Shown: positions 26,806 through 44,233, counted from the stretch's first letter. The stretch: DNA of 64,000 nucleotides from an uncultured Rhodobacteraceae bacterium (GCA_947502145.1 CANMYO010000006.1:11476-75475); one strand, 5' to 3'. Numbers and translations: made by a program. The notes: generated by a model from the sequence alone, not told the origin.

Positions 26806-27696
26806 TCAATAACCTGCAGAGACAAAACAATCGCGATGATGTCCCAGGAACCGTTCTGAAGGATACAATCGCTTGTCTTGCGGGAGGTGAACCCTAGTAA
26901 GAGATGGCTCGAGCAAATGATGGAAATCTGATGGAATGCGGTTATGAGCAACAATCAACCTGAACGCCGGGTCGATCGTTATGAGGTGGCGGTCAAAGAG
27001 CCAGTGAGCTGTCGCCGATAACGCGAGCCCGTTTTGAACGACGTCGGGTCCATCGCTCTCAACGGGTTGAATATGGGCGGCTTGTACTTCGGATCGACCG
27101 CCCCCATTCACAATCCGAAGGCGCGTTACAGCACATCGATCATCATATGCTTCGCAAACGATCTTTCGAAACGACGCATCGCGCACTGCTCGATTGGTAA
27201 GCCGTTCTTCTCGCGACCTAGAAATCGCTGTGTTTTCCGCTTGAGCATCTCCTTTTGGCCACCATCTGGACGCGCCTTCCGGATCTAAGATTTCGCGAAG
27301 CCCAAGATCGACGATCGCATTGAAGTCAGCATCCTCAAGCATGCGCACGGACCGCCCACGAAGGTATATACCAACTTGAGAGACATCGCGTATCTCGCGT
27401 AGTGCCCGCTCAGCATATCCTCCGCCAGGTTTCCACGGCACAGGACTGGGGAACTGTAGATAGTCCGCGATAATCGCATAATAGAATCCATCGCTCTCTT
27501 CATCTGGCAGAATGTCGATGACTCTTGCTACGGCAAAATATGCAATGCCTTCGCCACCATCGCGAGGTCGGCGAAAAACAATCCAATCGTTTAGTGCCTT
27601 CTCTATTTGTCGCAAGTACCTCGAAGGAAAATGATAATGTGAAGCGACTTCGTCGTCGTATGCCGACCCTCGTTTTGCGTCGAGAACGATTTTCAT
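26806..27696 (-). CDS. HNH (HNH_2-type) endonuclease with an N-terminal reader-like domain
   Basis: 296 aa. C-terminal motif CAVTRLRIVNGGGRSEVQAAHIQPVESDGPDVVQNGLALSATAHWLFDRHLITIDP. N-terminal ~170 aa (YDDEVASHYHFPSRYL ... IVFRRPRDGGEGIAYFAVARV) resembles the domain commonly fused to this HNH in putative modification-dependent enzymes. Last gene of the four-gene operon, with a 13-nt gap to dcm. Confidence 0.75.
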   Translation of the reverse strand: MKIVLDAKRGSAYDDEVASHYHFPSRYLRQIEKALNDWIVFRRPRDGGEGIAYFAVARVIDILPDEESDGFYYAIIADYLQFPSPVPWKPGGGYAERALREIRDVSQVGIYLRGRSVRMLEDADFNAIVDLGLREILDPEGASRWWPKGDAQAENTAISRSREERLTNRAVRDASFRKIVCEAYDDRCAVTRLRIVNGGGRSEVQAAHIQPVESDGPDVVQNGLALSATAHWLFDRHLITIDPAFRLIVAHNRIPSDFHHLLEPSLTRVHLPQDKRLYPSERFLGHHRDCFVSAGY

Positions 27697-27709
27697 CGCT
27701 CTAGTCGAC

Positions 27710-28855
27710 TCAACAACTTGACGAGCGGAAGCATCCGACGTCGAGTGTTACGAGGCTCTCTCTGATTGTTCGGCAAAGAACTTCAGCGAGCAGAACAGGA
27801 ACCGCGTTGCCTATTTGGGCACCCGTCGCCATCAATCCTCCTTCAAAATCGAACGAGTCAGGGAAAGTTTGTAGCCGGGCGGCCTGCCGAGCCGTTATTC
27901 CATGATGCTCTGTTGGGTGGACAAAACGTCCTTTGGAAGGGTTGATGCAAGCTGTCGTCATCGTAGGCGAAGGTCGACTTGGATCGACTCTTCCATATAC
28001 GTCTTTATGGCCGTTGTGCCCCTTGTGGCATGGAAGTACTCGGTTGGATTGTGCTCGTGAGCCGCCATTGGCTGGCGTGCTTTTGAACACGTCTATCAAT
28101 GCTTGTGTATGGTTCATGTGGATTGCATTTGGGTCTTCATCCCGTTCAGTTTCAACAAACGCATCCGCTGCCGTCCGCCAAGCCGGCAAACCGATCTCGT
28201 TTGCTGTTTCAGGCTTCGCATGTGTGGGACTCGGCGGCCATTCTAACTCATCAAAGCTGAACTCAGACGACATCCCCAGGATGAAGACCCTCTTTCGATT
28301 TTGAGGAACCCCAAAGTCACGAGCGTTGAGAATTACTGGGCCAATCACATGATATTGGCTTTCTTCAGCGATCGTGAGAAAGCGATCCAGATATTCTGCA
28401 TGCTTTGAGTGCAGGAGACCTGGAACATTTTCCACTAGGAAGAACTTGGGTTTAAGAGCTTTGACGAACGCAAAGTAGCGCAAAAGCAACTCGTTGCGGG
28501 GATCATTGACTCCTGCTGAGCCAAGTCGATGCGATGAGAAACCTTGGCAAGGCGGCCCTCCGAGCAGCAAATCACATTCGCCAGATATCAGCCCGCACTC
28601 GGACATAAGTTCCGCTGGACCTACTTCGCTAATGTCGTTCTCGAAGACAGCAATTCGGCGATTACTGACGTTCTGAATGTTGTTTCTGTAAGTACGGCTC
28701 GCATGTCCGTCCTTCTCAATTGCGGCCCTCAGCTCGAAACCGGCATGGATTGCTCCTAGGGAAAACCCTCCCGCTCCAGCAAATAAATCTACTGCAAACA
28801 GCGGCTTGTTGCCACTTTCTAGGGTTACATGGATATCGCTCTTCTGATCTAACAT
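27710..28855 (-). CDS. dcm: DNA (cytosine-5)-methyltransferase
   Basis: 381 aa. Motif I DLFAGAGGFSLG, motif IV GGPPCQGFS, motif VI FLVENVPGL, motif VIII QNRKRVFILG, motif X GNAVPVLL. Confidence 0.9.
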   Translation of the reverse strand: MLDQKSDIHVTLESGNKPLFAVDLFAGAGGFSLGAIHAGFELRAAIEKDGHASRTYRNNIQNVSNRRIAVFENDISEVGPAELMSECGLISGECDLLLGGPPCQGFSSHRLGSAGVNDPRNELLLRYFAFVKALKPKFFLVENVPGLLHSKHAEYLDRFLTIAEESQYHVIGPVILNARDFGVPQNRKRVFILGMSSEFSFDELEWPPSPTHAKPETANEIGLPAWRTAADAFVETERDEDPNAIHMNHTQALIDVFKSTPANGGSRAQSNRVLPCHKGHNGHKDVYGRVDPSRPSPTMTTACINPSKGRFVHPTEHHGITARQAARLQTFPDSFDFEGGLMATGAQIGNAVPVLLAEVLCRTIRESLVTLDVGCFRSSSC

Positions 28856-28880
28856 TGCAATCGTCGTTAATGCTTAGTGG

Positions 28881-30719
28881 TTAATCGGAACCTTCAACTG
28901 GGATTTCCAGTTCGGCCTTTTCATATTCAAGGCCAATCCTGCCCAATGACCTATTCAGTCGTGCTTGTACTTCGAGAGCGTATTCGTACCGCAAATGCCC
29001 GCAAACCGTAGCAGATTTGCGGACCAAGGTGGGCTCAGCCGCTTGTCCGTCGTCGTCAGCGGCGGCATTTGACGCAACAAAACGCACCATGACCTCAGAC
29101 GTATCTCCAGCCAGTCTTCCATCATTTTCTGCATACATGGAGACCGCGGCGGGAGAGGCAGCTGGACTATCGACAACCGAAAACGCAACTGGCGTGGTCT
29201 CCCCTCCTTGTACTGCTGCGATGTTGGCGAACAGAAAACCACCTTGGGCGGGATCGTTTAACGCGGTCGCCTCCTTTGCTGCTTCAAGGGCCAAAGCATT
29301 GAATTTCTTATACCCACCTACGTTATCAGGACGACGTTCAATTCCGCGTTCACGGCCAGGAAACATGTCGCATGCGGGTGTCACGCACATCCAAAATTTG
29401 TCGTCGATCCTAAATATGTGGCCAAGCTCAAGATGACTGCTTCGAACGGGTTTGCTGCCCTTGAAGGCGTTGTGACCCATACGTGCCTTCATCAGCTCTT
29501 TGTCGTCGCGGAGATCGATCTCGAACCTTTCTTTCACGGCATTCAAAGGAACCGCATCAGCATCCAACGCGGCAATCCTTGCGGCGTATGCTCCGACCTC
29601 CGGAACAATATGATCCAGGAGCTGTTCTGCATGATTTCGCGCTATTCGCTCAACCGTGACAGCGGCGTCTTGAGAATTCGCGGAAAGAACCCCGTGATAC
29701 CAGGCCGCTCCCACTTGCCTGTCCCCAAGAGCATCATCCTGAACCTCGACACCCCGTTTGTTCATCTCTGCTCTGAGCTTTGTCAAAACAAGGCGGGACG
29801 GAAGTGGTTTCCAAGCTTCCAGCGCCTCAAGAAGCACCGGCAACAGTGGCTCTTTGCTCTTCCTCTTGAACGCGATAAAGCCTTGATCGCAGCGTATCCA
29901 AAAAGGCTCTCCTGCGCTCCAATCTCTTAATCCAATATCGTCGCTAGAAAAACGGTCTTCATTGTCCGCTTCGAATGTGGAAAGCAGTTCTTGGAACAAA
30001 GCCCGCCAGTGCTTTCGATGGAGATCTTCATTCTCCAAAAAGCTCGATAAATCACCCCAAGGCGCCTCACCCTTAATCAAACGCCTGAATGCGTTCGCAG
30101 ACCTCCGAGCATCCAAGTACTGTGGGACATCAAACCGATCTCGAAGGGCGTCGGCTTTCGTTTCCAGAATTGCTTCGACCTCATCCGCCAAATCGTTGGT
30201 TGCTTCGGCAGTGTCTTCGATAAGTGATGAGCAAGGCTGGAGAAGGCCCAAGGCGAAATGGCCAAACACAGCGTCGAGCTCTTTTTCCGTGTGGACGAGG
30301 ATAAGGTTGAAATGCCTATTGGTTAGCGCCCCTCGAGCAATCGCCAATGCGGCCTTACCAACGTTGGGACCTGTCTCGAGTTCATAGTCCAGAACGAGCA
30401 AGTCAGTTTGTTGAAGGCGGTGAACTTCGGCGAGGTCCTGCTTTTCCGGCGGCTGGCTTCCGTCATGTACGTCAAGCAGATAAGGTCCGTCTGGCTGGCG
30501 GAATTCGCCAAGAACTCTTCCTACAGCCTCCGGGTCTCTAGCCCAGGCTTTGGCGGTTTTGACCAATAACGCTCCATCCGCGTCAACGCTGGCGGACGCC
30601 GCCCCCAATATCTCATCCACTGTGGGATACTGATCGTCAACGATCAAAACTGACCGGATCGGCTCAATGAACGCCTCTCTAATCAATGCTCCGTAACTAA
30701 TGGGTAATTCTGCTGTCAT
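28881..30719 (-). CDS. Atypical receiver (REC)-like domain protein with an uncharacterised ~450-aa C-terminal region
   Basis: 612 aa. The N-terminal ~150 aa have REC-like landmarks: VLIVDDQ (acidic pair), DLLVLDYEL (candidate phospho-acceptor Asp) and NLILVHTE (Thr). Its ATG overlaps the upstream gene's TGA (ATGA at 30716-30719). Confidence 0.6.
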   Translation of the reverse strand: MTAELPISYGALIREAFIEPIRSVLIVDDQYPTVDEILGAASASVDADGALLVKTAKAWARDPEAVGRVLGEFRQPDGPYLLDVHDGSQPPEKQDLAEVHRLQQTDLLVLDYELETGPNVGKAALAIARGALTNRHFNLILVHTEKELDAVFGHFALGLLQPCSSLIEDTAEATNDLADEVEAILETKADALRDRFDVPQYLDARRSANAFRRLIKGEAPWGDLSSFLENEDLHRKHWRALFQELLSTFEADNEDRFSSDDIGLRDWSAGEPFWIRCDQGFIAFKRKSKEPLLPVLLEALEAWKPLPSRLVLTKLRAEMNKRGVEVQDDALGDRQVGAAWYHGVLSANSQDAAVTVERIARNHAEQLLDHIVPEVGAYAARIAALDADAVPLNAVKERFEIDLRDDKELMKARMGHNAFKGSKPVRSSHLELGHIFRIDDKFWMCVTPACDMFPGRERGIERRPDNVGGYKKFNALALEAAKEATALNDPAQGGFLFANIAAVQGGETTPVAFSVVDSPAASPAAVSMYAENDGRLAGDTSEVMVRFVASNAAADDDGQAAEPTLVRKSATVCGHLRYEYALEVQARLNRSLGRIGLEYEKAELEIPVEGSD

Positions 30720-33703
30720 TGATCTTGTGTCTCTAAACCACGGAATTCGATAAGAAATGTTGCGCCTTTCAAGGGCACATCGTCGTCCTCTGTCCGATAG
30801 CGTATCAAGTGCCCGCCAGCAGCCAAGTTCGCTCTAGCAAGGTAAAGCCCAACGCCACGGCCCGAACGCTGTTTGCGTGTAAAAAACAGGTCAAAAATTT
30901 GCTCAGTTTCTTCAGCATCCACACCAGGCCCTGTATCAGAAACGGCAACTAGGTCTCCGACGAGATCCAGTTGTATCCGCCGGTCGGCAGGTGGTTGGGT
31001 AGCAGTCCAGTAAATACTGTTGTTTACAAGATTCAAAAACACCGGGAAAACGCGGGATGGCCTTTCGAAGACCCTAGCGGCGCGGAACTCTTTGGAAGCG
31101 GCGAACGAGATGCCCGCACGCGCAAAGGATGGGGCAAAAAATTGCTCGACAAACGATGCGATTTCTTCTCCAGATATCCACTTCTGCACTTTCTCACCAG
31201 ACAGGCGCATTGGTGAAAGAAAGCGCAGCTGGTCTGTGAGACCTTCCACTCCCAGGCGTATGTCGTTCACGGCCCGATGGTCCTGGACCTCAGCTGGTAA
31301 CCGTCGCAAACCTTGAGAGATCATTTCTTCAAAATCAGCTAGGTCGTGAGCGGCGATCTCAACTGCGATACCCAGTTGTGCTAGTGAGTTAAGGCGCTCT
31401 ACTTCTCTGTTCGCTTCGCCAAGTTCTCTCATACGGACACTTGCCAGTGTCTGGAGGTCAATCCGTTCCTGGACCGCTTCGAGCGCAGATTGATAAAGAC
31501 CAAAGGCAGCTCGGTTTTCTTTCGACCAGTCTTCTTCACGACGAGAAACACCCTCAAGCGCTTCTTCAAACGTTAAAAGCTCTGCTGAAAAACGCCGCGC
31601 GACATCGTTGAGCTCATCTTGAAACGCGTCCATTCGCGTTTCTGCCAGCTCGCGCACCGTCTTGTTTTGGTCACGTTGAAGGTTCTCAACGTTTGTTCGC
31701 AGTTCACCTATGCGTTTTCGCATCGAGGATATGGCCGCATCGGTGCGCTCTCGCAGGATGTCTTCCGGTTTATCTGGAATGGCCGTTTCGATCGCAGACC
31801 TCAGCGTTGCCTCATATCCAGAAATTGCGGCTGCGGCTTCCCTTGTTCGCTTTTGAACCTCATCAAAGCGCGTTGCCCAACGTCCACTTGGGGTTGACCT
31901 GGCGCGCACCAGCGCCTCCTCGTATCGCCTACGCATCTCGGCGAGTCGCGCTTCTTCGCGAACAATGCTAGGACCGGAAGTAACGTCGAGATCACCGGTT
32001 GCTTCTTCCACTTCGTCGATAAGACCCGGCAACATCTTTTCTGCACGCTCAACCTCGGCCCTGAAGGTTCGACGTTCTCGATCACGCAGTTTCTTCTCGC
32101 CTTCGGCTGCATTGGCGGATCGATTGTCCTCTTGAATCTGTGGAAGACGTTCTTTGCGAAGCTTTGAAGCGGATCCGAAGAAACGTCGTGCCGCTGTTTC
32201 GAGCACGTTGATAACTAACTCTCGAAAAACACGGGATGCAGCATTGTCGATAACACCTTCGCGCCCAGCTTTATCCTTCAAGTTAGGGTTACCCTTTCGC
32301 GTCAAGGCAATGCGACCAAACATTCGGCGGTGGTTCCAGAAATGCCTGCCCGCGTTTTTTGACCGGCGTTTCTCAATCTCATAGAAGTCGTTGTCTTCTC
32401 TGCCATAAGGAAGCACTCGTAGCCCATCACGAAAGATCATTAGGCCGCCGTAGTCCGAAGCCAGATCTTGATATGCTTTGTGCTGCCCTGTTGGATGCGT
32501 CGAGCTCTTGTCCTCCCACTCCATGGTCGCGATGAATAGTTCGAAACTACCCACCCTGCTGTTGGTCCGATTTGGTACCTTGAGTTCTGCGGGTGGTTCG
32601 AAAACTACAACTTCGTCAATCGAATTTCCGAAGGCCCGTACGCGGCCCCTGAATACGCCATTCTCATCTACGGTCCCTTCAATCTGGTGTTCCAGACCAG
32701 ACACCCTAGCTCGATCTATTCCACGCTCCGCGCCGACGATCAGCCGTGGGGTTCGATCCAAGTCCCTAGTGTCGACAACGTCAGCTCTATAATCAAACTC
32801 TGGCTTTGCTTGTCCTTCTGCATATGGATCGACAAAGCTGGCCAACGTCTGCTCAAAACGATCGCGCGCGCTTTGCGCCGCAATATCAGTGTCCTTCGGT
32901 CTGCCCAGTGCTTGTAGAGCCTCGTCTACTTCACTTACCAACAGTGCCGTCCCAAAACCGGACCATTCTTCCAGGTGTTCAATCGTAAACGGCAACCGCT
33001 TGAGCGCTTCGAGTGTTCTCGCAGAAGGGGCAAGGCCCGGCTCGTCGGAGCGATCTTTCGTCCAATCATCATCAAACCTCTTCCACACATCTAGCAGTAC
33101 GGGCTTTTTTTCACGCCAACTGGCTAAATCCTTTTGCGCGACTAATCCGGCTGCAAGCTTGTCCGACATATCATCCAAAGCCGCAAAAACATCCTCGATC
33201 TGCTCAAACTCACCAGCTGCTACAGGAACATCGTCCAAATCGATGTATGGATTTTCGAACAACCGCCAATCCAAAAGCGCAGCAATCAGGAAACCATCTC
33301 GGCGGCGAGACAGCATTAAGAGAATAGGGCCAAGTTTGGCGCTAGAAAGGCGGCCAATTCCCTTCTGACCTTGCTTTGGTCTAACTGGTAGACCATTGCG
33401 GTCTTCTTTCGGGACCGGCAGATTGAACGAAGTTTTGCTTTCTGTTCCTATTACCAACCACTTTTCAAACAAGTCGTCCAAGGACATGCCATGTCCGTCA
33501 TCCGCCAGGAGGGTCACAGCCGCATCGCTTGAGTAGACACGCAAAGTAACTTTGCGGGCATAGGCATCCCAGGAATTTTTCCAAAGCTCTGAGACCGCCG
33601 TCGGACTGTCAGCGATTTGCTCACGTCCAAGGTGATCAACCGTTCGCGCTCGCGTACGAAATTTTCTAGTCTCTAAAGACCTTGGAATAGCGGTGTCACT
33701 CAT
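30716..33703 (-). CDS. Fusion of an N-terminal MORC/Hsp90-like GHKL ATPase, a coiled-coil linker and a C-terminal histidine-kinase core (DHp + CA)
   Basis: Tracked ORF 30716..33730 starts at TTG; ATG at 33703 preferred. N-terminal Bergerat motifs are SELWKNSWDA (N box), DDGHGM (G1) and GQKGIGRLS (G2). Residues ~540-800 are Arg/Glu-rich helical. An H-box-like VEIAAHDLADF is followed by a second ATPase with LNLVNNSIYW (N), SDTGPGV (G1) and GRGVGLYLA (G2). Confidence 0.7.
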   Translation of the reverse strand: MSDTAIPRSLETRKFRTRARTVDHLGREQIADSPTAVSELWKNSWDAYARKVTLRVYSSDAAVTLLADDGHGMSLDDLFEKWLVIGTESKTSFNLPVPKEDRNGLPVRPKQGQKGIGRLSSAKLGPILLMLSRRRDGFLIAALLDWRLFENPYIDLDDVPVAAGEFEQIEDVFAALDDMSDKLAAGLVAQKDLASWREKKPVLLDVWKRFDDDWTKDRSDEPGLAPSARTLEALKRLPFTIEHLEEWSGFGTALLVSEVDEALQALGRPKDTDIAAQSARDRFEQTLASFVDPYAEGQAKPEFDYRADVVDTRDLDRTPRLIVGAERGIDRARVSGLEHQIEGTVDENGVFRGRVRAFGNSIDEVVVFEPPAELKVPNRTNSRVGSFELFIATMEWEDKSSTHPTGQHKAYQDLASDYGGLMIFRDGLRVLPYGREDNDFYEIEKRRSKNAGRHFWNHRRMFGRIALTRKGNPNLKDKAGREGVIDNAASRVFRELVINVLETAARRFFGSASKLRKERLPQIQEDNRSANAAEGEKKLRDRERRTFRAEVERAEKMLPGLIDEVEEATGDLDVTSGPSIVREEARLAEMRRRYEEALVRARSTPSGRWATRFDEVQKRTREAAAAISGYEATLRSAIETAIPDKPEDILRERTDAAISSMRKRIGELRTNVENLQRDQNKTVRELAETRMDAFQDELNDVARRFSAELLTFEEALEGVSRREEDWSKENRAAFGLYQSALEAVQERIDLQTLASVRMRELGEANREVERLNSLAQLGIAVEIAAHDLADFEEMISQGLRRLPAEVQDHRAVNDIRLGVEGLTDQLRFLSPMRLSGEKVQKWISGEEIASFVEQFFAPSFARAGISFAASKEFRAARVFERPSRVFPVFLNLVNNSIYWTATQPPADRRIQLDLVGDLVAVSDTGPGVDAEETEQIFDLFFTRKQRSGRGVGLYLARANLAAGGHLIRYRTEDDDVPLKGATFLIEFRGLETQDQ

Positions 33704-33805
33704 AAGTCCACGCACCCCCGGCTTGTGCAATGGCGGTGCATGAGACCGCGTGCGAACACTCGTAGTGAGGGAGCATCGCAGTCTCCAAAGTGGTTTGCCT
33801 CACCG

Positions 33806-34027
33806 TCAATCATTATCGCTCGAGTCCCGTCCACGCCGATCAACTAAATCCTCATCTTCAACGTCTATTCCGTAAGCGCGGAGGGCACGAAGTACAGACA
33901 TCCGAATGGTCTCACCATCTTGGGCCGCTCGAACGCGCAAGGATGTTCGAACTCTCTCCGGTACTTCGATTTGCAGCGCTACGTCACGGTGGGGCATCAC
34001 TAACTCTTCGCTTAGGTTCGCTAGCAT
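33806..34027 (-). CDS. Ribbon-helix-helix (CopG/Arc/ParG-like) small DNA-binding protein
   Basis: The tracked ORF starts at TTG 34054; ATG at 34027 gives MLANLSEELVMPHRDVALQIEVPERVRTSLRVRAAQDGETIRMSVLRALRAYG, which has a beta-alpha-alpha layout. An 8-bp inverted repeat GGTTTCTT/AAGAAACC (34038-34060) lies immediately upstream. Confidence 0.5.
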   Translation of the reverse strand: MLANLSEELVMPHRDVALQIEVPERVRTSLRVRAAQDGETIRMSVLRALRAYGIDVEDEDLVDRRGRDSSDND

Positions 34028-34473
34028 AACACCATTGGTTTCTTTAATTTTCAAGAAACCATGACTTAGTTGATAATGAAACGTCGAGATCGTTGCTGCA
34101 ATGCCCGTCGTTTGTCCAGCCTGCCGCCGGTTCCCTTCTGTTGCGCATCGTGATGTACAAAGCCGATGTGATACTTTGGGTTCTTCGGACGTGGCAGCAA
34201 ATAATTCAAAGTATAGCTTGCACTTTCAGCTGCGGTGCGGGGATGTTCAGCCCAACTACATAGTCAGTAAACGAGTAGGTCGGCTTTCAACTACACCGCA
34301 TGATAGTTTCGCAACCGCAGCAAAGGTCAGCTTTCCGCCCTTTCTTACCGTCCAGCTGGGCGGCCCAAGTTATCGAACCTAACCTAGCATTGTGTCTATT
34401 GCACGGGCCGCTACGCGTACATGGAACGTCTCAATGATCCTTGGTTCTTAAATTCGATAGCCTCACGTCGTTT

Positions 34474-35022
34474 TCAGCCCACCCAATCTATAATGCCGTG
34501 ATCATTAAATGCGCTCTCGTGAAGCGTTTCGACTTTGTCGCAGAAGACGACCAGGTTCTGCGTATCTGATCGGGCAGATGGAACAATCAACCCATCAAAG
34601 TCCAAGAAATGAGCAACCTCGCCGATCTCTTGTGTTCTAGGATACTCGTCATTCTTTTGCTGATAAGACAATCGGCCAAAGGTATCCGTCTTCAAGCCAA
34701 CTTCGCCGAGCGCGGCCAGGTCCAGAAACTGGAGTGCGCGCTCGAGCGCTAGGTCAACTTGGAACATCCGGTATTTGACACGGCTTGGTATGACGGGTTG
34801 GCCGCGCATTAGGTGGAAGCGCATTTCTTCGAGAGCACCCATCTGTGACATCGACGTGTAGAGCACATCGAAGCTGCCGTCATCCCACCGACCACCGGAA
34901 GCGCTGCATTGCAATGGATCTCTCCCATCGCGCACCAACCTCCAGACAGGACCGGAGAAAGCCACGGGCTCGATTGCTTCAAGAGCGTCAATAAGAGCGT
35001 TGTCGCGCCGGGCTTTGATCAT
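34474..35022 (-). CDS. RES-domain toxin (MbcT/ParT family)
   Basis: 182 aa. The R-E-S landmarks are GGRW, YTS...GALEE and LIVPSARS. Confidence 0.8.
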   Translation of the reverse strand: MIKARRDNALIDALEAIEPVAFSGPVWRLVRDGRDPLQCSASGGRWDDGSFDVLYTSMSQMGALEEMRFHLMRGQPVIPSRVKYRMFQVDLALERALQFLDLAALGEVGLKTDTFGRLSYQQKNDEYPRTQEIGEVAHFLDFDGLIVPSARSDTQNLVVFCDKVETLHESAFNDHGIIDWVG

Positions 35023-35030
35023 TGCGGACT

Positions 35031-35369
35031 CTATACGAAGACATCGTTGTCGAGACGATCAATTACCGCCAAGACTTCGAGACTACGGTCATTATGGATC
35101 AAATCCATTGCACGTTCACCACCAAGCTGAGGATGTCTTGCATAAAGCCACGCACGCACTTCTTCAGGAGCATAGTACTCGTTGAGGCGACCAACGATGT
35201 AATAGAGATCTGAAAGGATGAGTTCATTGCGCGGCTGGGGTTTAAAATCGCCAGCTTTCCAACGGGAGACAGTTGCCTTGGACACATCAGTTATGTTGGC
35301 AATGTCGGTCCCTTTCAGACCCCCGATTTCGGCAAGTTCGCCAATGTATCTTGTTACAGCACTTTGCAT
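35031..35369 (-). CDS. Xre-type antitoxin with C-terminal DUF2384 (MbcA/ParS family)
   Basis: 112 aa. HTH GTDIANITDVSKATVSRWKAG, then WLYARHPQLGGERAMDLI. 8-nt gap to the RES gene. Confidence 0.8.
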   Translation of the reverse strand: MQSAVTRYIGELAEIGGLKGTDIANITDVSKATVSRWKAGDFKPQPRNELILSDLYYIVGRLNEYYAPEEVRAWLYARHPQLGGERAMDLIHNDRSLEVLAVIDRLDNDVFV

Positions 35370-35374
35370 ATCTA

Positions 35375-36709
35375 TTACCTTTGGTCGCCAAGCAGCGATG
35401 GTTGCGCGATGTTAAGATCGCAGGCCCGCGCACGAGGCGACTCTGTTCCGCGCTCCTCATGGAGTTTTTCAAGGGCATCCGCAACCTTGCCCATGGTTTC
35501 TGCATGTGTTCGCGTGCGTTTTAGCAAGCTTTCCAAATCCACGTCTGCGGCGAGGGCCTGCGCCTCGGTTGGCTTCAAAAAACTGATGTCCTTCGCGCGA
35601 CGCTCCGCCGGCGCAACCGTCTTCGACAAGAAATGGCCGGCTCTATTTAGGTCCGGAACATCATCTAGCGCCGATTGTGAGCGCGCGATGTGGAGCGCTT
35701 GAACTTGCTTTCGGGTCCTTACCATCTCGTCAATGCTGGGTGCGCTCACATGTTCGCTTTGCAACAGTAGCTTGCGCCCTCCCCTCGCCCGCGCCAAAAG
35801 CTCGAACTCATGAGCCCGAAATCCTCTCCCCAATCCGGGAACCTGAACGATGCGCGGTCGACCAAACTTAGCATCCGGATCGCGCTCTTCAGGTGGTTTG
35901 TGCCAATCACGTGCGTTGAACTGATCAAGTTCAAGAATGCCGCCTGCCGCCCCTGAAGCAACACCAAAAGCCTCTGCCGCTTCGGCGTTCAAGCCAGAGC
36001 AATAGTCAAGAATGATGGGTTTGCCCAAATTATGCAGCCCGCCCAACATCCGGATGAGCGTCCGGACTTTCTGAGGACCCGGATCTTTACCGAGCCCAGA
36101 CAAGCGCATCCACAAGGCATCAATTGGTAGGTTGGATAACGTTTCAACAAGTGCTTTTCGGGAGGTCGAGTCGATCAAGCCTTGAACGGTTTGCATTACG
36201 GGATAGTCGATCTGGATATGTTTGCCGCCTAGGGTGTCCAACGCACGGCGCAATCTGGTGCAAGAAGCGGCATCAACAGAAAGCCAGCCGTCAAAACGCC
36301 GATCACCGAGGAAATGCGTGGGCGCTAGAATGCGATCTGCGCCAAGCTTGATGGCTGTTTCAGCTATGCGCTCGATGGTGTTTCCATTGAAATCAGAAGG
36401 TCCAAGCGGCTTGTCCGGTACGTCTACGAGCCAATCCGCATGACGCACAAATGTTCCAAACCGTGCGAGGCTGGATAGCTCGGCAGCGCCTGTATCGAGC
36501 GTAATTTCAACATTTTCGCTTTTGAGCTGCGTCGCAAGTCCGCTTTGACGCTTGAGACGCCCTGCTTCAAAGACGACCCGTGTCAGGGGCAGATGTCCTG
36601 AAGCATGCATTTCTCCGAATTTCACATGTGAATCGCCGATACGGAAGAACTGCGCCAGCGGCGTGCGGAGCTTCTGACCTTTTGGAAATGGGACGACAAC
36701 TGTGTTCAT
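35375..36709 (-). CDS. Uncharacterised 444-aa protein co-transcribed with the Xre-RES pair
   Basis: Long clean ORF with an ATG start. Its stop (35375-35377) is 5 nt from the Xre start codon. No family motif recognised by eye. Alternating beta/alpha-like composition over ~300 aa, then a helical Arg/Glu-rich tail. Confidence 0.6.
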   Translation of the reverse strand: MNTVVVPFPKGQKLRTPLAQFFRIGDSHVKFGEMHASGHLPLTRVVFEAGRLKRQSGLATQLKSENVEITLDTGAAELSSLARFGTFVRHADWLVDVPDKPLGPSDFNGNTIERIAETAIKLGADRILAPTHFLGDRRFDGWLSVDAASCTRLRRALDTLGGKHIQIDYPVMQTVQGLIDSTSRKALVETLSNLPIDALWMRLSGLGKDPGPQKVRTLIRMLGGLHNLGKPIILDYCSGLNAEAAEAFGVASGAAGGILELDQFNARDWHKPPEERDPDAKFGRPRIVQVPGLGRGFRAHEFELLARARGGRKLLLQSEHVSAPSIDEMVRTRKQVQALHIARSQSALDDVPDLNRAGHFLSKTVAPAERRAKDISFLKPTEAQALAADVDLESLLKRTRTHAETMGKVADALEKLHEERGTESPRARACDLNIAQPSLLGDQR

Positions 36710-37808: not shown

Positions 37809-39674
37809 ATGACCAAACAGCAACCCATCACCCAAAACACCGCCAGCGCCGTGATCCAGCAAATCCCGTTGGACGCGCTGTCCATCTCTGATTTGAACCC
37901 ACGCACAACGGTTTCAGAGGCGCATATCGAAAGCCTCGCCGACAGCATCGAGCGCTTTGGCCTCATTCATAACCTTGCAGGCTTCATGGATGCGGACGGT
38001 AATGTCGGCATCGTTGCTGGTGGGTGCCGTCTTCGCGCCCTTGAACGGATTGCAGAGCGTTCCAAAAACCATTCCTTCGAAACTGTGCCTGTAAAGCTGG
38101 CCTCCAGCGCCGAAGAGGCCGAAGATTGGGCCAGCGCCGAAAACGCGGTCCGTGAAGACATGGCCCCAGCGGACGAAATCCGCGCCTTTGGCCGAATGAA
38201 GGCCCGCAATGCAACGGTGCCGGAGATTGCACTCGCGTTTGCCGTTACAGAGGCGCGCGTTTATCAACGGCTGGCGCTTGCGGGTCTGCCAGACGCTGTG
38301 TTGGACGCGCTCGCGGCGAGTGAGATTGGCCTGGGTACTGCCAAAGCGTTCACACTTTCCGATGATGAAGCACTCACCCTGAGCCTCTTGGATCAAGTTA
38401 AGGGGCAAGCCGTGTCGGAGGCGGCGATCAAAAACGCGCTACATCCCGATGCCATAAAGGCCAGTGATCGTCGTGCGAAGTTCGTGGGCGTTGAGAGATA
38501 CGAAGCCGAAGGTGGCAGTGTTACTCGTGACCTCTTCTCCGACGAAGTCTTCCTCGCCTCCCCTGCCCTTCTGGAACGTCTCTTCGGTGAGGCGCTGGAC
38601 ACGGCCCGCAATGAACTGGTCGAAGCGCAAGGCTGGGCTTGGGCCGAAGCGCGCACCGAGGCGTGGCTCAACTACTATGATCTCGATCAGATGAAACTGG
38701 AACGGGTCTATCCAATTGAGGGCGAACTGACCGAAGCAGAAGCCGAGGAATACGACGCACTCGCGGACCTCGCCAATGGCGGCGTCTTGGACGAAGATGG
38801 CGAGGCTCGGTTGTCCGAGTTGCAAACCATTCTGGACGGCGACTACTCAGCAGATCAGAAGGCCCATGCGGGATGCATTCTGCTTGTAAATTCATCTGGC
38901 AAAGTCGAAGTGACGGCGGGTTTGGTGCGCCACGATGACAAGAAGGCGGCGATCGAAGCAGGAATCTTGAAACCCCCGCAAAGCACAAAGTCCGATGTGC
39001 CGAAATCTCCTTACTCGCAGAAACTGACGGCAGACATGCAAGCCATCCGTCTGGCATCCGTGCAGGCCGCAATCCTGACGAAGCCCGAACTTGTCCTTGA
39101 TCTTTTGGGATTTGGGTTGTCCGACGCCTCTGGCAGTTTTGAGCGTATCTTTGGTATGCGTATGGATCGCCCAAACAACGCTCCGAGCATCGAAGATGGC
39201 TTTGAAGCGGAACCACGTTTGAACCATGGGATCGATGCAAGCGAGTATTGGCAGCAAGGGACCCGCGTTGAAGACCTCTGCGCTGCCTTTGCCACCTATC
39301 GCGACGGCTCCAAGAAGTCGCGTAACGTCACAATCACGGAAGCCATTGCGCGCACCCTGCCCTATCAGGCTGGCGGTCAAGAATTCTTCGCGCTCATTGA
39401 GACAGAGGCGGGTGCCGATATCCGCAGGCACTGGACGCCCACTGCACAGAACTTCTTTTCGCGCGTGTCAGCAGGCTATCCTGTTGAATTAATGTGTGAA
39501 TTCTTGGAGTGCAGCGCCAATGATGAACGCTTGACCGCCTTTGCCAAACTCAAGAAAGGCGAAAAGGCCGAGAAGATGGAAAACCTGATGACGAATGCAA
39601 CGACGCAAAAGCTGATGGGGCTGACGGCAGATCAAAAAGCCAAACTCGACAAATGGGTGCCTGACTGCACCTAA
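37809..39674 (+). CDS. ParB/Srx-like nuclease-domain protein (large conjugative-element ParB-like protein)
   Basis: 621 aa. N-terminal ParB box region (IPLDALSISDLNPR ... LADSIERFGLIHNL ... IVAGGCRLRAL), then a long C-terminal extension as seen in ICE/plasmid leading-region ParB-like proteins. Confidence 0.75.
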   Translation: MTKQQPITQNTASAVIQQIPLDALSISDLNPRTTVSEAHIESLADSIERFGLIHNLAGFMDADGNVGIVAGGCRLRALERIAERSKNHSFETVPVKLASSAEEAEDWASAENAVREDMAPADEIRAFGRMKARNATVPEIALAFAVTEARVYQRLALAGLPDAVLDALAASEIGLGTAKAFTLSDDEALTLSLLDQVKGQAVSEAAIKNALHPDAIKASDRRAKFVGVERYEAEGGSVTRDLFSDEVFLASPALLERLFGEALDTARNELVEAQGWAWAEARTEAWLNYYDLDQMKLERVYPIEGELTEAEAEEYDALADLANGGVLDEDGEARLSELQTILDGDYSADQKAHAGCILLVNSSGKVEVTAGLVRHDDKKAAIEAGILKPPQSTKSDVPKSPYSQKLTADMQAIRLASVQAAILTKPELVLDLLGFGLSDASGSFERIFGMRMDRPNNAPSIEDGFEAEPRLNHGIDASEYWQQGTRVEDLCAAFATYRDGSKKSRNVTITEAIARTLPYQAGGQEFFALIETEAGADIRRHWTPTAQNFFSRVSAGYPVELMCEFLECSANDERLTAFAKLKKGEKAEKMENLMTNATTQKLMGLTADQKAKLDKWVPDCT

Positions 39675-39700
39675 CGGCTCCTTCGTGGGAAGGATCAACT

Positions 39701-39730
39701 GGTCCCGCTTCGGCGGGGCCTTTTTTGTGG
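39701..39730 (+). terminator. Rho-independent terminator after the ParB-like gene
   Basis: GGTCCCGC-TTCG-GCGGGGCC (one G-U pair) followed by TTTTTTGTGG. Confidence 0.75.
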
Positions 39731-40044
39731 CTGGTTGGAGGTTCTGTTGAAAATCTCAAAATTGTCCGGCGGCGGGGCAAGAGGACAAGCCCCCTGCCCT
39801 GCCACCGGACCGGCGCTGTCCGCGCGGGAGCATCGTGTGAACGATGCATGTCGATCTCAGTTTATTGCTGACCTGTATCTTGACGATCACGATATGAAAC
39901 CCGATGTTAGTGTTGGCCTTCCGCACAGGCCTGTGTGTCCGCGACCCAAAGCTATGCAGTGCTTTAATTCTTTTTCACCGTTCCCTTCGAAGCGGATCGA
40001 TTAGTAGCGGGCACCTAGTCAGATCCGGAATTTGGAATGGATCA

Positions 40045-40782
40045 ATGGCACTAGACCAGCAAATCAAAGACCTTAAGAAACTCGCAAAGAAAATTGCGAG
40101 GTCGAAACGCATCGAACATCACGATGCGCTCAATATCGTGGCGCAAGAGCTCGGACATACCCATTGGTATTCAGCAATGACGGCTTGCAAGAACGGTTGG
40201 CTTCCGACACCTGACGACTTTGCCAAAGTCGGAGACCTTCTCAAGCAGGCTCATCCTGATGAAACCGTCGAGATGTTTGGCGACCCTGGTGGAGAAAGTC
40301 AGGGGCAGATAGGGCCACATGACTATTCTATCGAAGTCTCCATGGACGAAGTCTTCGTTCGTGGACGAGGTTGGATGGTTCATGTGCCTGAGGCACCATC
40401 CAAAGAACCTTGTGTTCGCGTGACCGATAAGCGCTTCAAAATGAACCCGATCCACGATCCTGGTTTCGTCACGCGTGCACTAGAAATTGCGAATACCAAG
40501 GCGGAACAGGTGCGAGCGCGGATTGCTTCGGATTGGCCGAGACGGTCCACAATGCCAGATGCAAATGGCTTCGCGGTTCATCCGATCAATGGCAGTTCGA
40601 GCGACACATGGTTCTGTTTGCATTGCGATGAAAGACTGCCAGCCAAATCTGTCGCTGAAAATCTTTGGCACTGCCCTCACTGTAGTGCTTCACCGATGGA
40701 TATCTTCAGTTCTGCGTGGTGGCTCGAGGATGCATCAGATGAACATGCTGGTTCTGTCCATAGAAGCCGTCTGAAAGGGTAG
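40045..40782 (+). CDS. Hypothetical protein with a C-terminal zinc ribbon
   Basis: Start at MALDQQIKDLKK (40045). C-terminal CLHCDERL...HCPHC. The tracked 39904 start looks like a non-coding extension. Confidence 0.5.
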   Translation: MALDQQIKDLKKLAKKIARSKRIEHHDALNIVAQELGHTHWYSAMTACKNGWLPTPDDFAKVGDLLKQAHPDETVEMFGDPGGESQGQIGPHDYSIEVSMDEVFVRGRGWMVHVPEAPSKEPCVRVTDKRFKMNPIHDPGFVTRALEIANTKAEQVRARIASDWPRRSTMPDANGFAVHPINGSSSDTWFCLHCDERLPAKSVAENLWHCPHCSASPMDIFSSAWWLEDASDEHAGSVHRSRLKG

Positions 40783-41197
40783 GCACGAATGAGGCCGGTG
40801 GTGTTTTACCATCGGCCTCTTCCTTGCGAGCTCAGATCTATGGCGTCGGCGGTACACTGACGGCCTCAGTTTTTCATTTTATAGGCTTAAGAGCGGTGCC
40901 CTACGTTCAGCGCCAAAGCCTCACATGATATCTGCCTTGGGACTCAATGCCGGAGTTCGAAGTTGCTGCGTGGTCCGATTTGCACCTTGCGTCGGAGTTG
41001 CAAAAAAATGTTGGTCGCAGAGGCCGACCCGAACACAAAGGGCGTTTGCCAGAATTGTCCCCTGCCCTTTGGGCATTCCTCGCGCGGCAAAATTCTGTCC
41101 CCCTGCCCTTCTCCGCTTAGCTGCGCCGATGGTGTGTTCGGCTCTTAGGCCTCTGCAAGGTGACCATCATTGCAACACCAACCAAAGGAGCAAAGCA

Positions 41198-41533
41198 ATG
41201 ACCACCAACTGCATCAAATTCGAAAGCACCGACATCGAGACCGCCAAAGGGTCCGGCTCAATTTCAACTCTGACCTTCGATCTCGATATCACCGTGGAGC
41301 CCATCATCAGCGACAACCCTATGGCACCGACGCACCGCGTCCTTGGCCGTTCACCACGTGGTCGCCTCGTTGAGTGTGGCGGCATCTGGAAGAAACAAAA
41401 CCGCGACACCGGCGCAGATTACTTTTCGATGACGGTCCGGGACTATGCGTTCAATGCAAACCTTGGCAAAGCCGCGAACCAAGATGATGATACGTTGCAA
41501 GCGATCATCCCTTGGGGTCCTAAGGAGGTTTAG
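41198..41533 (+). CDS. DUF736 family protein
   Basis: ATG 41198 after AAAGGAG. GSISTLTFDLDITVEPI ... THRVLG ... ECGGIWKKQNRDTGADYFSMTV matches the DUF736 pattern as I recall it. Confidence 0.7.
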   Translation: MTTNCIKFESTDIETAKGSGSISTLTFDLDITVEPIISDNPMAPTHRVLGRSPRGRLVECGGIWKKQNRDTGADYFSMTVRDYAFNANLGKAANQDDDTLQAIIPWGPKEV

Positions 41534-41541
41534 TAGGCCCA

Positions 41542-41580
41542 GTTGCTGGCCGGTTCTCCGGCCAGCAACACTTACATTTT
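41542..41580 (+). terminator. Stem-loop after the DUF736 gene (terminator; alternatively a partition or operator site)
   Basis: Perfect 12-bp arms GTTGCTGGCCGG (41542-41553) and CCGGCCAGCAAC (41558-41569) with loop TTCT, then ACTTACATTTT. Confidence 0.5.
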
Positions 41581-41606
41581 GGCATTTTGCACGCGTGCAA
41601 AATGCC
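41581..41606. promoter_or_regulatory. Perfect 26-bp palindrome upstream of repA (candidate RepA/RepB operator or parS)
   Basis: GGCATTTTGCACG|CGTGCAAAATGCC, 158 bp upstream of the repA ATG. Confidence 0.45.
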
Positions 41607-41763
41607 AGAGGTCATTGCCAAACGTTGTTCACTTTTTCTATTAGTATGGTCCATATTGTGCGTCAGATATCGGGTAGGCGTACAATATCTATACAAAACC
41701 TTCAAAACCGTGCTATTAACTTGCGGAATCGGTTCCATAAGAGAATCGAATGAGGACGGTGTT

Positions 41764-43119
41764 ATGAGCGGCAGCATAGAACAATTTCTTCAGGAGCTTG
41801 AGCGAGGCCTTGGCCGGACCATGGTTTCGGTGAACAAGGAACTTACAATGCGAGAGCGCATCAAGCGCTCTTGGTCAATGCGCCAATGCGCACGCTTCCT
41901 CGATATCAGCCATCAGCATCTGACAAAGTTTGCCAAGGACAATGAAGATTTCCCGGCGGGCAAACATGTTGGTCGTGAACGTGTCTTCACGCTCACTGAA
42001 CTGATGCATATCCGCGCACTTATGGCAGCCTCTGCCAAACGGCCGGAGCACTTCTTAGCATGGCGCAAGCCAGACGACCCTTTGCCGGTTATCTCCTTTG
42101 CGAGCCAGAAAGGTGGAACTGCGAAATCATTGAGCGCGGCTCACTTTGCGCAGTACTTGAGCCTCAACTATGGAATGCGGGTTGGTGTCATGGATGCTGA
42201 CCCACAAAGTACAATTACGCTCTACTTTGTTGGCGGCGAAGAGATGCCGACTTTGCCCGACCCCGAAACACCAACAATGGTCGATTTTGCCGGGTTGTTT
42301 CAAACGGATGAAACTATCCCTTACACAGACTATGACGCTGGGACTTTAGACGGGTTCTTCAAGAAAACATCGTGGCCAGGCGTAAGGCTGGTTCCTGCAC
42401 ATGGTGAGACTTCTGAAGGCGAGATCCAAATTGCCCGTCTTTTACGTGCCGGGACGCCTGAGAAACGGTTCTATAGGTTTTTGCGAGACTCCATTGATCG
42501 CTGGAAAGAAGGCCATCTTCCCGTCACGCGACCAAATGAGCTGGTGAGAGACAATAGAGTCGATCGATCGAAGTTGGATCAGGCTCTAAACGAGACGTTA
42601 GACTGCATAATCATTGATTATCAGCCTGCCTTGACGCTCTTCCAGCTAAACAACGTGATGGCGTCTACATCACTGATTATTCCTCAGACGATGAAGGGCT
42701 TTGACATCGCAACGTTGTCGACCTTCGTAACCGGTCTACTAACAATGTTGCGCCATATTTTTGCGACTGATCGTATCGATATGGGCGGTGCGGCGCATAT
42801 GCTCCTTCCGACTATCGTACAGCGCACAAATGAACAGGACCTCACGCAAGTTGGAAACTTGCTTGAAAACTGTCCGGATGAGGTTCTCCCCGTCTTCTAT
42901 TTGCGCTCCGATGCAATCTCAAATGCTTCGGATGTTTATCAATCTGTCTATGAATACGAGCCAGATACTCCGGGCAAGAAGAAGGGTATCAACCGTTTCA
43001 TAGAAAACGCAGATGCCGTGAACGACGCCATTGTTTCTCGTTTGTGGCCGGGTCTAGAGCGTGGTTATGCGGATGCGTGGATGAAGAATTTCTATGATTT
43101 TGAGGAGGAAACTGAATGA
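41764..43119 (+). CDS. repA: Partition ATPase RepA (ParA family) of a repABC cassette
   Basis: Start MSGSIEQF (41764) after GAGGA. N-terminal HTH region (MRQCARFLDISHQHLTKF) and deviant Walker A FASQKGGTAKSLSA. Followed by repB and repC. Confidence 0.85.
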   Translation: MSGSIEQFLQELERGLGRTMVSVNKELTMRERIKRSWSMRQCARFLDISHQHLTKFAKDNEDFPAGKHVGRERVFTLTELMHIRALMAASAKRPEHFLAWRKPDDPLPVISFASQKGGTAKSLSAAHFAQYLSLNYGMRVGVMDADPQSTITLYFVGGEEMPTLPDPETPTMVDFAGLFQTDETIPYTDYDAGTLDGFFKKTSWPGVRLVPAHGETSEGEIQIARLLRAGTPEKRFYRFLRDSIDRWKEGHLPVTRPNELVRDNRVDRSKLDQALNETLDCIIIDYQPALTLFQLNNVMASTSLIIPQTMKGFDIATLSTFVTGLLTMLRHIFATDRIDMGGAAHMLLPTIVQRTNEQDLTQVGNLLENCPDEVLPVFYLRSDAISNASDVYQSVYEYEPDTPGKKKGINRFIENADAVNDAIVSRLWPGLERGYADAWMKNFYDFEEETE

Positions 43120-44153
43120 AAAGAACATTGAGCAGCTCGGTCCTCAAGAAAAAGAGAGTTGATGAGGCAGTGGTCGAAGCTGGAGACGAAATTGAGCTTG
43201 AGAGCACTGTTGAAGGAACGTCGCCCGTTGTTGCTGGCGTAAAACCGCGCCTAGGCGGCTCTGGAAGTGCATGGAAAGCGGGCGCGTTGTCGGACGCGGA
43301 ACAGATTTTGCAGACCGAACGTACGCAGGTCGTTGAGCGGATCCTTTCTGGCCGTCAGGAGTTGCGTATCGACCCATCTCAGATCATCGACGTGATTGGG
43401 ACGGACCGCCGAGATGACTGGCGCGATCAAGATGCTTTTGAAGCGCTAAAGGATAGTATTGCCAAGAATGGCCAGGATACACCAATCCATGTTTGGCCTG
43501 CAGATCCCAATTGGCGTCCAGACGAACGTGAGCCGGAGAACCTTGAGGGCGTGAAGTTTCAATTGATTGTTGGACGCCGCCGTCACGCAATCTTGGCAGC
43601 GCTTGGCTTGCCACTGCGGGCGTTGCTTGTCCCTCAATCACAACGCGGCTCGAAGGAAGAACAGTTTGAGATGCTGTTCATGCGCTTTCGTGAAAACGAA
43701 GAGCGTGAAAACCTCAGTGCATTCGAGCGTCTCGTATCCATTGGGGAGATGTTTGATCAACTTCAGGGCACGACACCCGATGGGAAGCTTTCAGCTACTG
43801 AGTTTTCGCACCGAGTTGGCGTTCACAACAGCGCTGTGTCGCGGGGTAGGGCTGTTTTTGCGGCGAAAGATCAGATTTTGCACACGTGCAAAAATGTCTA
43901 CGATCTCAGTCATCGCGACCTAGAAAAGGTCCTCAATGACCTTTCTGGCAAGATTGACAAGTCAGTAAAAAAGAAACCGACGAAACCCAAAAAGCTGACA
44001 GTTAAACGTAAGGTTGGGTCGCGAAAACTCAGCGTGACAGGGCAGGGGGGGCGGCTGTCTGTTGCTGCCACCGGCTTGGCACTGGATGAGGATATCCTCA
44101 ATGGGTTGGGAGATGTCATCGCGGAGTTCTTAGAGAAACATGGATCGAAGTAA
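43116..44153 (+). CDS. repB: Partition protein RepB (ParB family)
   Basis: 345 aa with ATGA overlap with repA. ParB-box region (IDPSQIIDVIGTDRRDD ... LKDSIAKNGQDTPIHVW ... LIVGRRRHAIL). Confidence 0.8.
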   Translation: MKRTLSSSVLKKKRVDEAVVEAGDEIELESTVEGTSPVVAGVKPRLGGSGSAWKAGALSDAEQILQTERTQVVERILSGRQELRIDPSQIIDVIGTDRRDDWRDQDAFEALKDSIAKNGQDTPIHVWPADPNWRPDEREPENLEGVKFQLIVGRRRHAILAALGLPLRALLVPQSQRGSKEEQFEMLFMRFRENEERENLSAFERLVSIGEMFDQLQGTTPDGKLSATEFSHRVGVHNSAVSRGRAVFAAKDQILHTCKNVYDLSHRDLEKVLNDLSGKIDKSVKKKPTKPKKLTVKRKVGSRKLSVTGQGGRLSVAATGLALDEDILNGLGDVIAEFLEKHGSK

Positions 44154-44233
44154 GAGGCAGGAGCCGCGAAGACGGTGCTCTTCGATCCCAAACGAGGCAA
44201 GAAACAGGATCATGTATGAAGTGATTTAACGGC

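Follow-up and report, generated by a model that had tools for sequence, protein, structure and literature searches.

A plasmid-borne Rhodobacteraceae locus is a new member of the HEF_HK/Response_reg_2 cassette, with a C5-cytosine methyltransferase and an accessory reader-plus-HNH nuclease

We analysed a 64,000-nt stretch of DNA from an uncultured Rhodobacteraceae bacterium (GCA_947502145.1, CANMYO010000006.1:11476-75475; hereafter the window, in which all positions are counted). It carries four adjacent minus-strand genes encoding a histidine kinase-like protein, a receiver protein, a C5-cytosine methyltransferase (Dcm) and an HNH nuclease. Based on profile and full-length protein matches, the locus is a new, fairly divergent member of the cassette defined by the HEF_HK protein family together with the Response_reg_2 family. 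The conserved unit of this cassette comprises three genes (ATPase-kinase, receiver and Dcm), and the nuclease is an accessory. We see an even chance that the locus serves as a plasmid-borne, methylation-based defence or exclusion cassette, with a self-marking Dcm, a sensing kinase, a receiver that provides the output and an add-on reader-HNH nuclease. For this window the locus is a routine further member and not a discovery. The interest sits at the level of the family: in the output of the core, in the pairing of a 5-methylcytosine (5mC) writer with a 5mC-type reader nuclease, and in the coupling of a MORC-type ATPase to a phosphorelay.

Gene linkage was scored in a sample of 80 loci with relatives of the receiver, one genome per species, using phmmer to identify the neighbours; 156 species-level receiver relatives were confirmed in total. 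The kinase gene lies directly beside the receiver gene in 79 of the 80 loci, the exception being truncated, and a Dcm gene occurs at most 5 kb from the receiver gene in 76 (62 of the 64 loci with full context). The HNH family found here is encoded in only four loci (Jannaschia, Caulobacter, Falsochrobactrum and Rubritalea). Thus, these counts define a three-gene core to which the nuclease is an accessory. The bare core stands alone in 26 of the 64 full-context loci. Vsr is encoded in 42 of the 80 loci, and so frequent a partner implies long-term methylation of host DNA by Dcm. Gene order varies, with Dcm upstream in about two-thirds of the loci. Clustering of the flanking open reading frames (ORFs) recovered no further recurrent partner, only integrases in eight loci, sporadic genes and antisense shadows of vsr, and this speaks against an unrecognised nuclease travelling with the bare core.

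The initial annotation had treated the four genes as one system whose members should be found together outside this replicon. For the kinase-receiver pair and for Dcm this expectation holds, and the recurrence of the gene combination in independent species-level loci places it beyond chance. It does not hold for the nuclease, present in four of the 80 loci, or for a small gene upstream of the operon, found in one other locus, and a fixed four-gene system is therefore not upheld.

The cassette ranges from Alphaproteobacteria to Verrucomicrobia, Desulfobacterota and Bacteroidales, and its receiver family comprises 352 clusters at 50% identity. Its surroundings are of a mobile or defence type and include toxin-antitoxin pairs, GmrSD, integrases, integrative and conjugative elements (ICEs) and prophages. 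In Caulobacter segnis (locus L007), GmrSD and Fic genes lie beside the cassette. Defence genes near the cassette or its HNH family also include a Shedu SduA_C gene (L089) and, on a Roseomonas plasmid (L092), a DUF262 and HEPN pair with a second Dcm.

The two families that define the cassette, PF19191 (HEF_HK) and PF19192 (Response_reg_2), were created for this gene pair by Bellieny-Rabelo, Pretorius and Moleleki (2021, Genome Biol Evol, PMC8011034), who reported 91.6% linkage of the two families in 644 regions from 628 strains. In that survey the dominant kinase architecture was HATPase_c_3 + HEF_HK + HATPase_c, with a conserved His and Asp. The neighbourhoods were strongly enriched in C5-cytosine methylases and included Vsr (20 genera) and HNH_2 nucleases. 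The authors proposed a cytoplasmic two-component-like system, derived from paraMORC ATPases and mechanistically tied to restriction-modification (R-M). Theirs is a bioinformatic proposal, made without experiment, and we found no later experimental work on the family in the searchable literature. The initial annotation had taken the combination to be undescribed, but the pair, the C5-methylases and the HNH_2 neighbours had all been reported in that paper.

The locus in the window resembles the published cassette in its two protein families and group 1 kinase architecture, in its adjacent kinase and receiver genes, linked C5-methylase and HNH_2 neighbour, and in the conserved His, Asp, acidic pair and Thr. 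It differs in its host, being on a Roseobacter-group plasmid, whereas the HNH_2 neighbours in the earlier survey were confined to Enterobacterales and Bacteroidetes. The survey did not separate a three-gene core from its accessories, and the reader domain and type IV character of the HNH_2 protein were not recognised there.

The kinase gene (30716-33703) encodes 995 aa from its ATG, or 1004 aa from an upstream TTG. The protein is a paraMORC-type GHKL ATPase fused to a histidine-kinase core and belongs to the HEF_HK family. It begins with a Bergerat ATPase module (HATPase_c_3, 53.6 bits in Pfam; aa 35-146, 33266-33601) and ends with a catalytic ATP-binding domain (HATPase_c, 54.7 bits; aa 882-987, 30743-31060) containing the N, G1 and G2 boxes. 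Between them, the DHp or H-box region (aa 776-833, 31205-31378) matches HEF_HK at 22.5 bits, slightly under the cut-off of 24.1, so that the group 1 architecture is present with a near-threshold HEF_HK domain. The protein nevertheless matches PF19191-carrying proteins over its full length (E down to 0). The candidate phosphorylated histidine is H786 (codon 31346-31348), within EIAAHDL and followed by the acidic D787. In an alignment of 72 intact homologues, 164 positions are at least 97% conserved, including E39/N43, D68-G70-G72, G112-G117, H786, the N, G1 and G2 boxes of the kinase domain and a central block. The family profile aligns through the DHp and catalytic domains of solved kinases (ThkA, 3a0r, E=6e-12), and at the N-terminus it has a weak match to MutL in the PDB. 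The N-terminus (aa 20-120) also matches the BbrUII/HgiDII restriction-enzyme family in NCBIfam at 54.9 bits, against a cut-off of 550 bits.

The central block (aa 420-490, 32234-32446, with the motif FRDGLRVLPYG followed by NPNLKDKAGREG) belongs to no Pfam family and is also found in AbrB of the Ambrosia system discussed below. A possible role is that of a transducer-like element linking the N-terminal ATPase with the remainder of the protein. In six of the 80 species-level loci (L010, L019, L049, L067, L076 and L078), and in one of two near-identical Rhizobium records (L002 compared with L001), two or three separate ORFs take the place of the intact kinase gene, whereas the neighbouring Dcm is intact. 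A split kinase gene beside an intact Dcm fits the decay of a costly restriction-like component, although errors of assembly in metagenome-assembled genomes are possible.

The receiver gene (28881-30719) encodes 612 aa with an N-terminal receiver domain (aa 21-161, 30237-30659) that matches Response_reg_2 (PF19192) at 47.8 bits, above the cut-off of 27. Its closest homologue is 48% identical. Nearly all of 120 full-length homologues contain PF19192, and conservation spans the whole of the approximately 600 aa. In an alignment of 32 receiver proteins D28-D29, D111 (30387-30389, in LLVLDYEL) and T144 are invariant. The C-terminal module (aa 261-612, 28884-29939) is specific to the family and carries its own invariant residues (G433, W443, P448-x-C450-D451, R577 and Y580, with H434 and Y578 nearly invariant), making it a candidate output or effector. 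An AlphaFold2 (AF2) model of the protein, with a predicted local distance difference test (pLDDT) of 81.8 and a predicted template-modelling score (pTM) of 0.80, shows a receiver-like domain, then an extended helical region, and finally a C-terminal domain rich in beta structure. Foldseek found no significant fold match for the C-terminal module in the PDB, its avidin- and START-like matches being noise, and Pfam at E up to 5 returned nothing usable. An exhaustive search of 1.84 billion representatives recovered the module only in this architecture of about 600 aa, in the 352 clusters of the family, which rules out a shuffled effector domain used elsewhere.

The Dcm gene (27710-28855) encodes 381 aa matching DNA_methylase (PF00145) at 209.7 bits and TIGR00675 at 172 bits, and the motifs FAGAGG, PPCQ, ENV and GNAVP are all present. 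The kinase and receiver genes overlap by 4 nt (ATGA, 30716-30719), and gaps of 25 nt and 13 nt separate the receiver gene from Dcm and Dcm from the nuclease gene. Scans with consensus sequences detected no convincing promoter or terminator within the operon, the counts being no greater than expected from shuffled sequence. The initial annotation fares well on these points. The ORFs are intact, the overlap and gaps are those it described for a single transcription unit, Pfam agrees with its domain calls for the four products, and the residues that it named in EIAAHDL (the H-box), LLVLDYEL and PPCQ are all in place. It had also placed the operon on a plasmid, and the window contains repABC genes, a relaxase and a coupling protein, identifying a mobilisable repABC plasmid of the Roseobacter group.

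The fourth gene (26806-27696) encodes a nuclease of 296 aa. Its catalytic core is of the HNH_2 type (43 bits in Pfam; aa 188-242, 26971-27135), and H208, N222 and H231 are invariant in the alignment of the family. The closest solved relative by sequence is TagI, and the family profile matches only TagI (3e-7), VcaM4I (3e-3) and ScoMcrA (9e-3) in the PDB. Foldseek searches with an AF2 model (pLDDT 72, mostly 80-94 in the N-terminal domain) returned VcaM4I (E=5e-5) and TagI (1.3e-3). The N-terminal domain (aa 1-135, 27292-27696) has no sequence match in Pfam (E up to 5) or, by phmmer, in the PDB. Its predicted structure belongs to the PUA superfamily (EVE/YTH-like), with Foldseek matches to PH1033 (TM-score 0.64), THYN1 with 5mC DNA, McrB-N and YTH domains, most of them at probabilities between about 0.7 and 1.0; it is thus a candidate reader of modified bases. 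On the basis of sequence and model together, the nuclease has the reader-plus-HNH architecture of modification-dependent type IV enzymes, and is itself predicted to be modification-dependent. VcaM4I has a pocket, made up of P24, W82 and Y130, into which 5mC or 5-hydroxymethylcytosine (5hmC) is flipped. The family studied here has invariant P24 and F82, which are candidate pocket residues.

By structure and by profile, the nuclease is matched best by VcaM4I, TagI and ScoMcrA (Lutz et al. 2019; Pastor et al. 2021). Like it, these proteins are about 300 aa long and join a reader-like domain of the PUA superfamily at the N-terminus through a linker to an HNH domain at the C-terminus. Like these EVE-HNH and SRA-HNH enzymes, the family can stand alone. 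It differs from them in having a reader domain with no detectable sequence similarity to theirs and, in this operon, in apparently being co-transcribed with a C5-methylase, an arrangement seldom seen for enzymes of this kind. Type IV nucleases are expected to have no cognate methylase adjacent, whereas Dcm here lies 13 nt upstream on the same strand. The initial annotation had spoken of a methyltransferase/nuclease pair; the type IV-like architecture of the nuclease and the stand-alone occurrence of its family do not bear out a standard pairing.

The genomic contexts of the HNH family are mixed: alone, in defence islands near methylases, in a separate mobile cassette, or with the kinase-receiver core. 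The separate cassette has the composition Dcm-(Vsr)-reader-HNH-HATPase_c_3 (449 aa)-Methyltransf_35 (L008:5434-10314 and L090:5434-10230), and in it a short stand-alone GHKL ATPase replaces the kinase and receiver pair beside the same HNH family. It lies within an ICE in Sphingopyxis and, in the other genome, within a prophage between head-tail connector and capsid genes. A role for the HNH gene as a functional substitute for Vsr in the same slot is ruled out, as the Jannaschia operon carries both. Across 12 loci the receiver and HNH proteins co-diverge (Spearman 0.86, Mantel p ~2e-4), which suggests joint inheritance, although a shared host phylogeny may contribute to the correlation.

The closest experimentally validated comparison is Ambrosia (AbrR-AbrA-AbrB-AbrC-AbrD), a five-gene anti-phage system of Pseudomonas (van den Berg et al., bioRxiv 10.1101/2025.09.30.679545, 30 Sep 2025). 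It comprises an XRE regulator, an N6-adenine methylase, AbrB (HATPase_c_3 + HATPase_c, 747 aa), a receiver (AbrC, 209 aa) and an HNH protein (AbrD, 213 aa). According to its authors, defence depends on each of the five genes and is lost when conserved residues are mutated in any of the predicted domains; the mutants include N40A in AbrB, D60A in AbrC and H60A in AbrD. Infection induces the methylase and HNH positions, and AbrA methylation leaves the phage unprotected. In the model proposed by the same authors, two-component control governs an R-M-like module whose target is the modification that it makes itself (bioRxiv 10.1101/2025.09.30.679545).

We compared the Ambrosia sequences (their Table S1) with profiles of the families described here. 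Residues 1-400 of the 747 of AbrB, the part available for comparison, match the kinase-family profile at 95.9 bits, contributed by the N-terminal ATPase (66.6 bits) and the central block (27.8 bits); the 500-bit AbrB threshold of the Ambrosia authors refers to their own hidden Markov model. Based on this match, AbrB is probably homologous to the kinase family. AbrB N40, in ELVKNAYDA, occupies the same motif as N43 here, in ELWKNSWDA, and by inspection of the motifs AbrC D60 (AIILDEQL) resembles D111 (LLVLDYEL). The other components are different. AbrC does not match the Response_reg_2-family profile and scores only 13.7 bits against Pfam Response_reg. AbrD, a PF01844 (HNH_4) protein without a reader domain, does not match our HNH-family profile, in agreement with Pfam, whereas the nuclease here combines a PUA-like reader with HNH_2. 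AbrA is of the N6_Mtase/MmeI_Mtase type and the methylase here is a C5-cytosine enzyme (PF00145). The regulator is XRE in Ambrosia and RHH-like (ribbon-helix-helix) here, AbrB is shorter than the 995-aa kinase protein, and AbrC has no counterpart of the large unique C-terminal module of the 612-aa receiver. Ambrosia also occurs in Gammaproteobacteria, mostly Pseudomonadales. The locus is thus not a member of Ambrosia, while having the sensor chassis and the overall five-part logic in common with it (small regulator, DNA methylase, HATPase_c_3 + HATPase_c kinase-like protein, receiver and HNH nuclease).

We infer the following operation for a defence or exclusion cassette. Dcm would mark resident DNA, and the MORC/MutL-like N-terminal ATPase of the kinase protein would sense infection or incoming DNA. 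Sensing could drive autophosphorylation of H786, followed by transfer of the phosphate to D111 of the receiver. The C-terminal module of the receiver may then provide the output, either acting on DNA itself or switching on the enzymes of the cassette, as reported for Ambrosia. Where present, the reader-HNH protein would add restriction of foreign cytosine-modified DNA, in a sequence context or of a modification type unlike that of Dcm. The initial annotation had already proposed a kinase-to-receiver switch tied to a methylase and nuclease module. This remains plausible, as the kinase residues are at least 97% conserved, those of the receiver are invariant, and Ambrosia needs both its receiver Asp and its ATPase Asn. 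The recent validation of Ambrosia, a partly homologous system, makes a defence role credible by analogy. Such a cassette would join a MORC/MutL-like ATPase to a His-Asp phosphorelay, a rare combination in immunity.

Several observations weigh against this reading. The receiver domain is atypical: its AF2 model has no clear fifth strand, and its Foldseek matches in the PDB (RcsB, NarL and FrzS) are weak, with E at least 0.09. Neither Foldseek nor Pfam recognised a nuclease or effector fold in the C-terminal module of the receiver or elsewhere in the core proteins, including the middle region of the kinase protein, for which Pfam at E up to 5 returned nothing usable; the three-gene core therefore has no effector recognisable by these searches. 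In the accessory nuclease, confidence in the model of the HNH core is low (pLDDT <50 at aa 187-219). A 5mC-type reader nuclease beside a 5mC writer is unusual and requires that their specificities differ, and a DNA methylase lies at most 3 kb away in <6% of such nucleases (Lutz et al. 2019). Finally, the Pectobacterium genes from which the family was first described are induced in planta, during plant infection (PMC8011034), and a non-defence regulatory role is therefore possible.

The close proximity of a 5mC writer and a nuclease of 5mC/5hmC-dependent architecture, 13 nt downstream, also admits a mode of action resembling that of Ambrosia. The regulator and the kinase-receiver pair would keep the cassette silent until infection, when Dcm would methylate DNA de novo and the 5mC-reading HNH protein would cut what had been marked, so that the methylase would make targets and not protect self. 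The five-part layout of Ambrosia, its infection-induced methylase and HNH positions and its failure to protect phage by AbrA methylation all point this way, as do the co-divergence of receiver and HNH proteins across the 12 loci and the homologue of the small regulator at the same position in an HNH-bearing locus (L057). However, the HNH gene is missing from 76 of the 80 loci and cannot be the general effector. Vsr, in 42 of the 80 loci and together with HNH in the Jannaschia operon, suggests a lasting host 5mC that a nuclease directed at Dcm sites would make intolerable. The receiver protein has no DNA-binding output domain recognisable by Foldseek or Pfam, the Ambrosia receiver, methylase and HNH protein are not homologous to those here, and the co-divergence could reflect shared host phylogeny alone. 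We regard this mode of action as unlikely.

Rather improbable, too, is a cytosine-methylation mark-and-cut switch in which a MORC-like sensor-kinase phosphorylates a receiver with a new output domain and thereby unleashes both the 5mC writer and the 5mC-reading HNH nuclease. In a weaker form of this idea, the C-terminal module of the receiver may be a new phosphorylation-activated, DNA-targeting effector; if true, this would explain how the three-gene core works without a recognisable nuclease.

The cassette might instead have no immune function, being either a cytoplasmic signalling or epigenetic module that tunes methylation or expression to a cellular cue, or a selfish module that keeps the plasmid stable through addiction. 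The in planta induction through which the founding Pectobacterium genes were noticed would suit such a role, as would the position of the locus among plasmid maintenance and toxin-antitoxin genes and the lack of an effector recognisable by Foldseek or Pfam. We nevertheless consider it distinctly improbable, since the cassette is patchy and mobile and repeatedly lies near GmrSD, Shedu, toxin-antitoxin pairs and integrases, its kinase chassis has a homologue in Ambrosia, a validated anti-phage system, and its N-terminal ATPase resembles those of restriction enzymes.

Least probable is a type II-like pair in which Dcm has the HNH protein as its cognate restriction enzyme, blocked by methylation, and which the kinase and receiver only regulate or assist: the two genes are adjacent on the same strand, a type II HNH model is among the PADLOC matches (PDLC03546, E=2e-6), paraMORC ATPases have been reported to accompany HNH nucleases as well as cytosine methylases (Iyer et al. 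2008), and the same HNH family accompanies Dcm and a short GHKL ATPase in the ICE and the prophage, but all relatives of solved structure, by structure and by sequence, are modification-dependent, the N-terminal domain resembles modified-base readers, the family occurs without a methylase nearby, and 95% of cassettes have no HNH gene, so that Dcm needs no such partner and those cassettes would be nuclease-free.

R-M operons in which paraMORC ATPases accompany cytosine methylases, Vsr and HNH nucleases have been reported (Iyer, Abhiman and Aravind 2008), and the linkage of an N-terminal HATPase_c_3 domain to these partners is common to those operons and the present cassette. Unlike the kinase protein, the paraMORC/MORC and BbrUII/HgiDII proteins have neither a C-terminal DHp and catalytic kinase core nor a receiver partner. 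In PADLOC, the kinase protein has only REase_II and weak ZorA matches, and the receiver protein matches no family. Within the kinase protein, the type II R-M models (REase_II and BbrUII/HgiDII) extend over the ATPase region alone, and automated annotation would therefore probably call the locus an ordinary type II R-M system.

The cassette shares with Detocs (DtcA/DtcB/DtcC) the proposal that a kinase-to-receiver phosphorelay drives an immune output, but it has a MORC-like ATPase sensor and a DNA methylase and lacks the buffer receiver and PNP effector. Detocs was ruled out, in keeping with the initial annotation, by the PADLOC results and by the absence of a second receiver gene and of a PNP domain. 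A Vibrio cholerae paraMORC paper concerns a GHKL-Shedu fusion and not the HEF_HK/Response_reg_2 family, and a prediction of HATPase + REC in a figure legend of DefensePredictor (Science 2026), unvalidated there, could not be tied to this family. The cytosine variant would lend itself well to testing: genome-wide mapping of 5mC is feasible and solved structures exist for relatives of the accessory nuclease, so that the choice between self-protection and target creation by the methylase is directly answerable.

Upstream of the kinase gene, a small minus-strand ORF (33806-34054, 82 aa) probably starts at an internal ATG. An operator-like palindrome, the inverted repeat TGGTTTCTTTAA / TTCAAGAAACCA (34036-34061, with 12-nt arms at 34036-34047 and 34050-34061), overlaps the start of this ORF. 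Both features, noted in the initial annotation, are real, although the assignment of the product as a possible RHH regulator depends on a sub-threshold Pfam match to FitA-like_RHH (E=0.044). The sole homologue (L057:5626-5871, Falsochrobactrum tianjinense, 45% identity over 67 aa) lies directly upstream of Dcm, kinase and receiver genes in one of the four HNH-bearing species-level loci, a hint (n=2) that regulator and nuclease may go together. With one homologue among about 90 other loci, the small gene is ruled out as a component of the core and counts as an occasional accessory.

The plasmid backbone occupies 37809-53828 of the window and includes a 621-aa ParB_N protein, a DUF736 protein and repABC genes with a ParA-like RepA. 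RepC (44388-45689) has 80.6% DNA identity to a Phaeobacter inhibens plasmid; the operon itself had no megablast match among PLSDB plasmids. A HipA toxin (46406-47638), a MobA/VirD2 relaxase (49942-51804) and a TraG/VirD4 coupling protein (51804-53828) are also encoded in the backbone. Near the cassette, the minus strand encodes a RES toxin (34474-35022) and an Xre-type antitoxin (35031-35369). A 444-aa ORF (35375-36709) precedes this pair on the same strand with a 5-nt gap; it matches nothing in Pfam, PADLOC or NCBIfam and is a possible third component. In Caulobacter segnis (L007), too, the cassette has a RES-Xre pair nearby.

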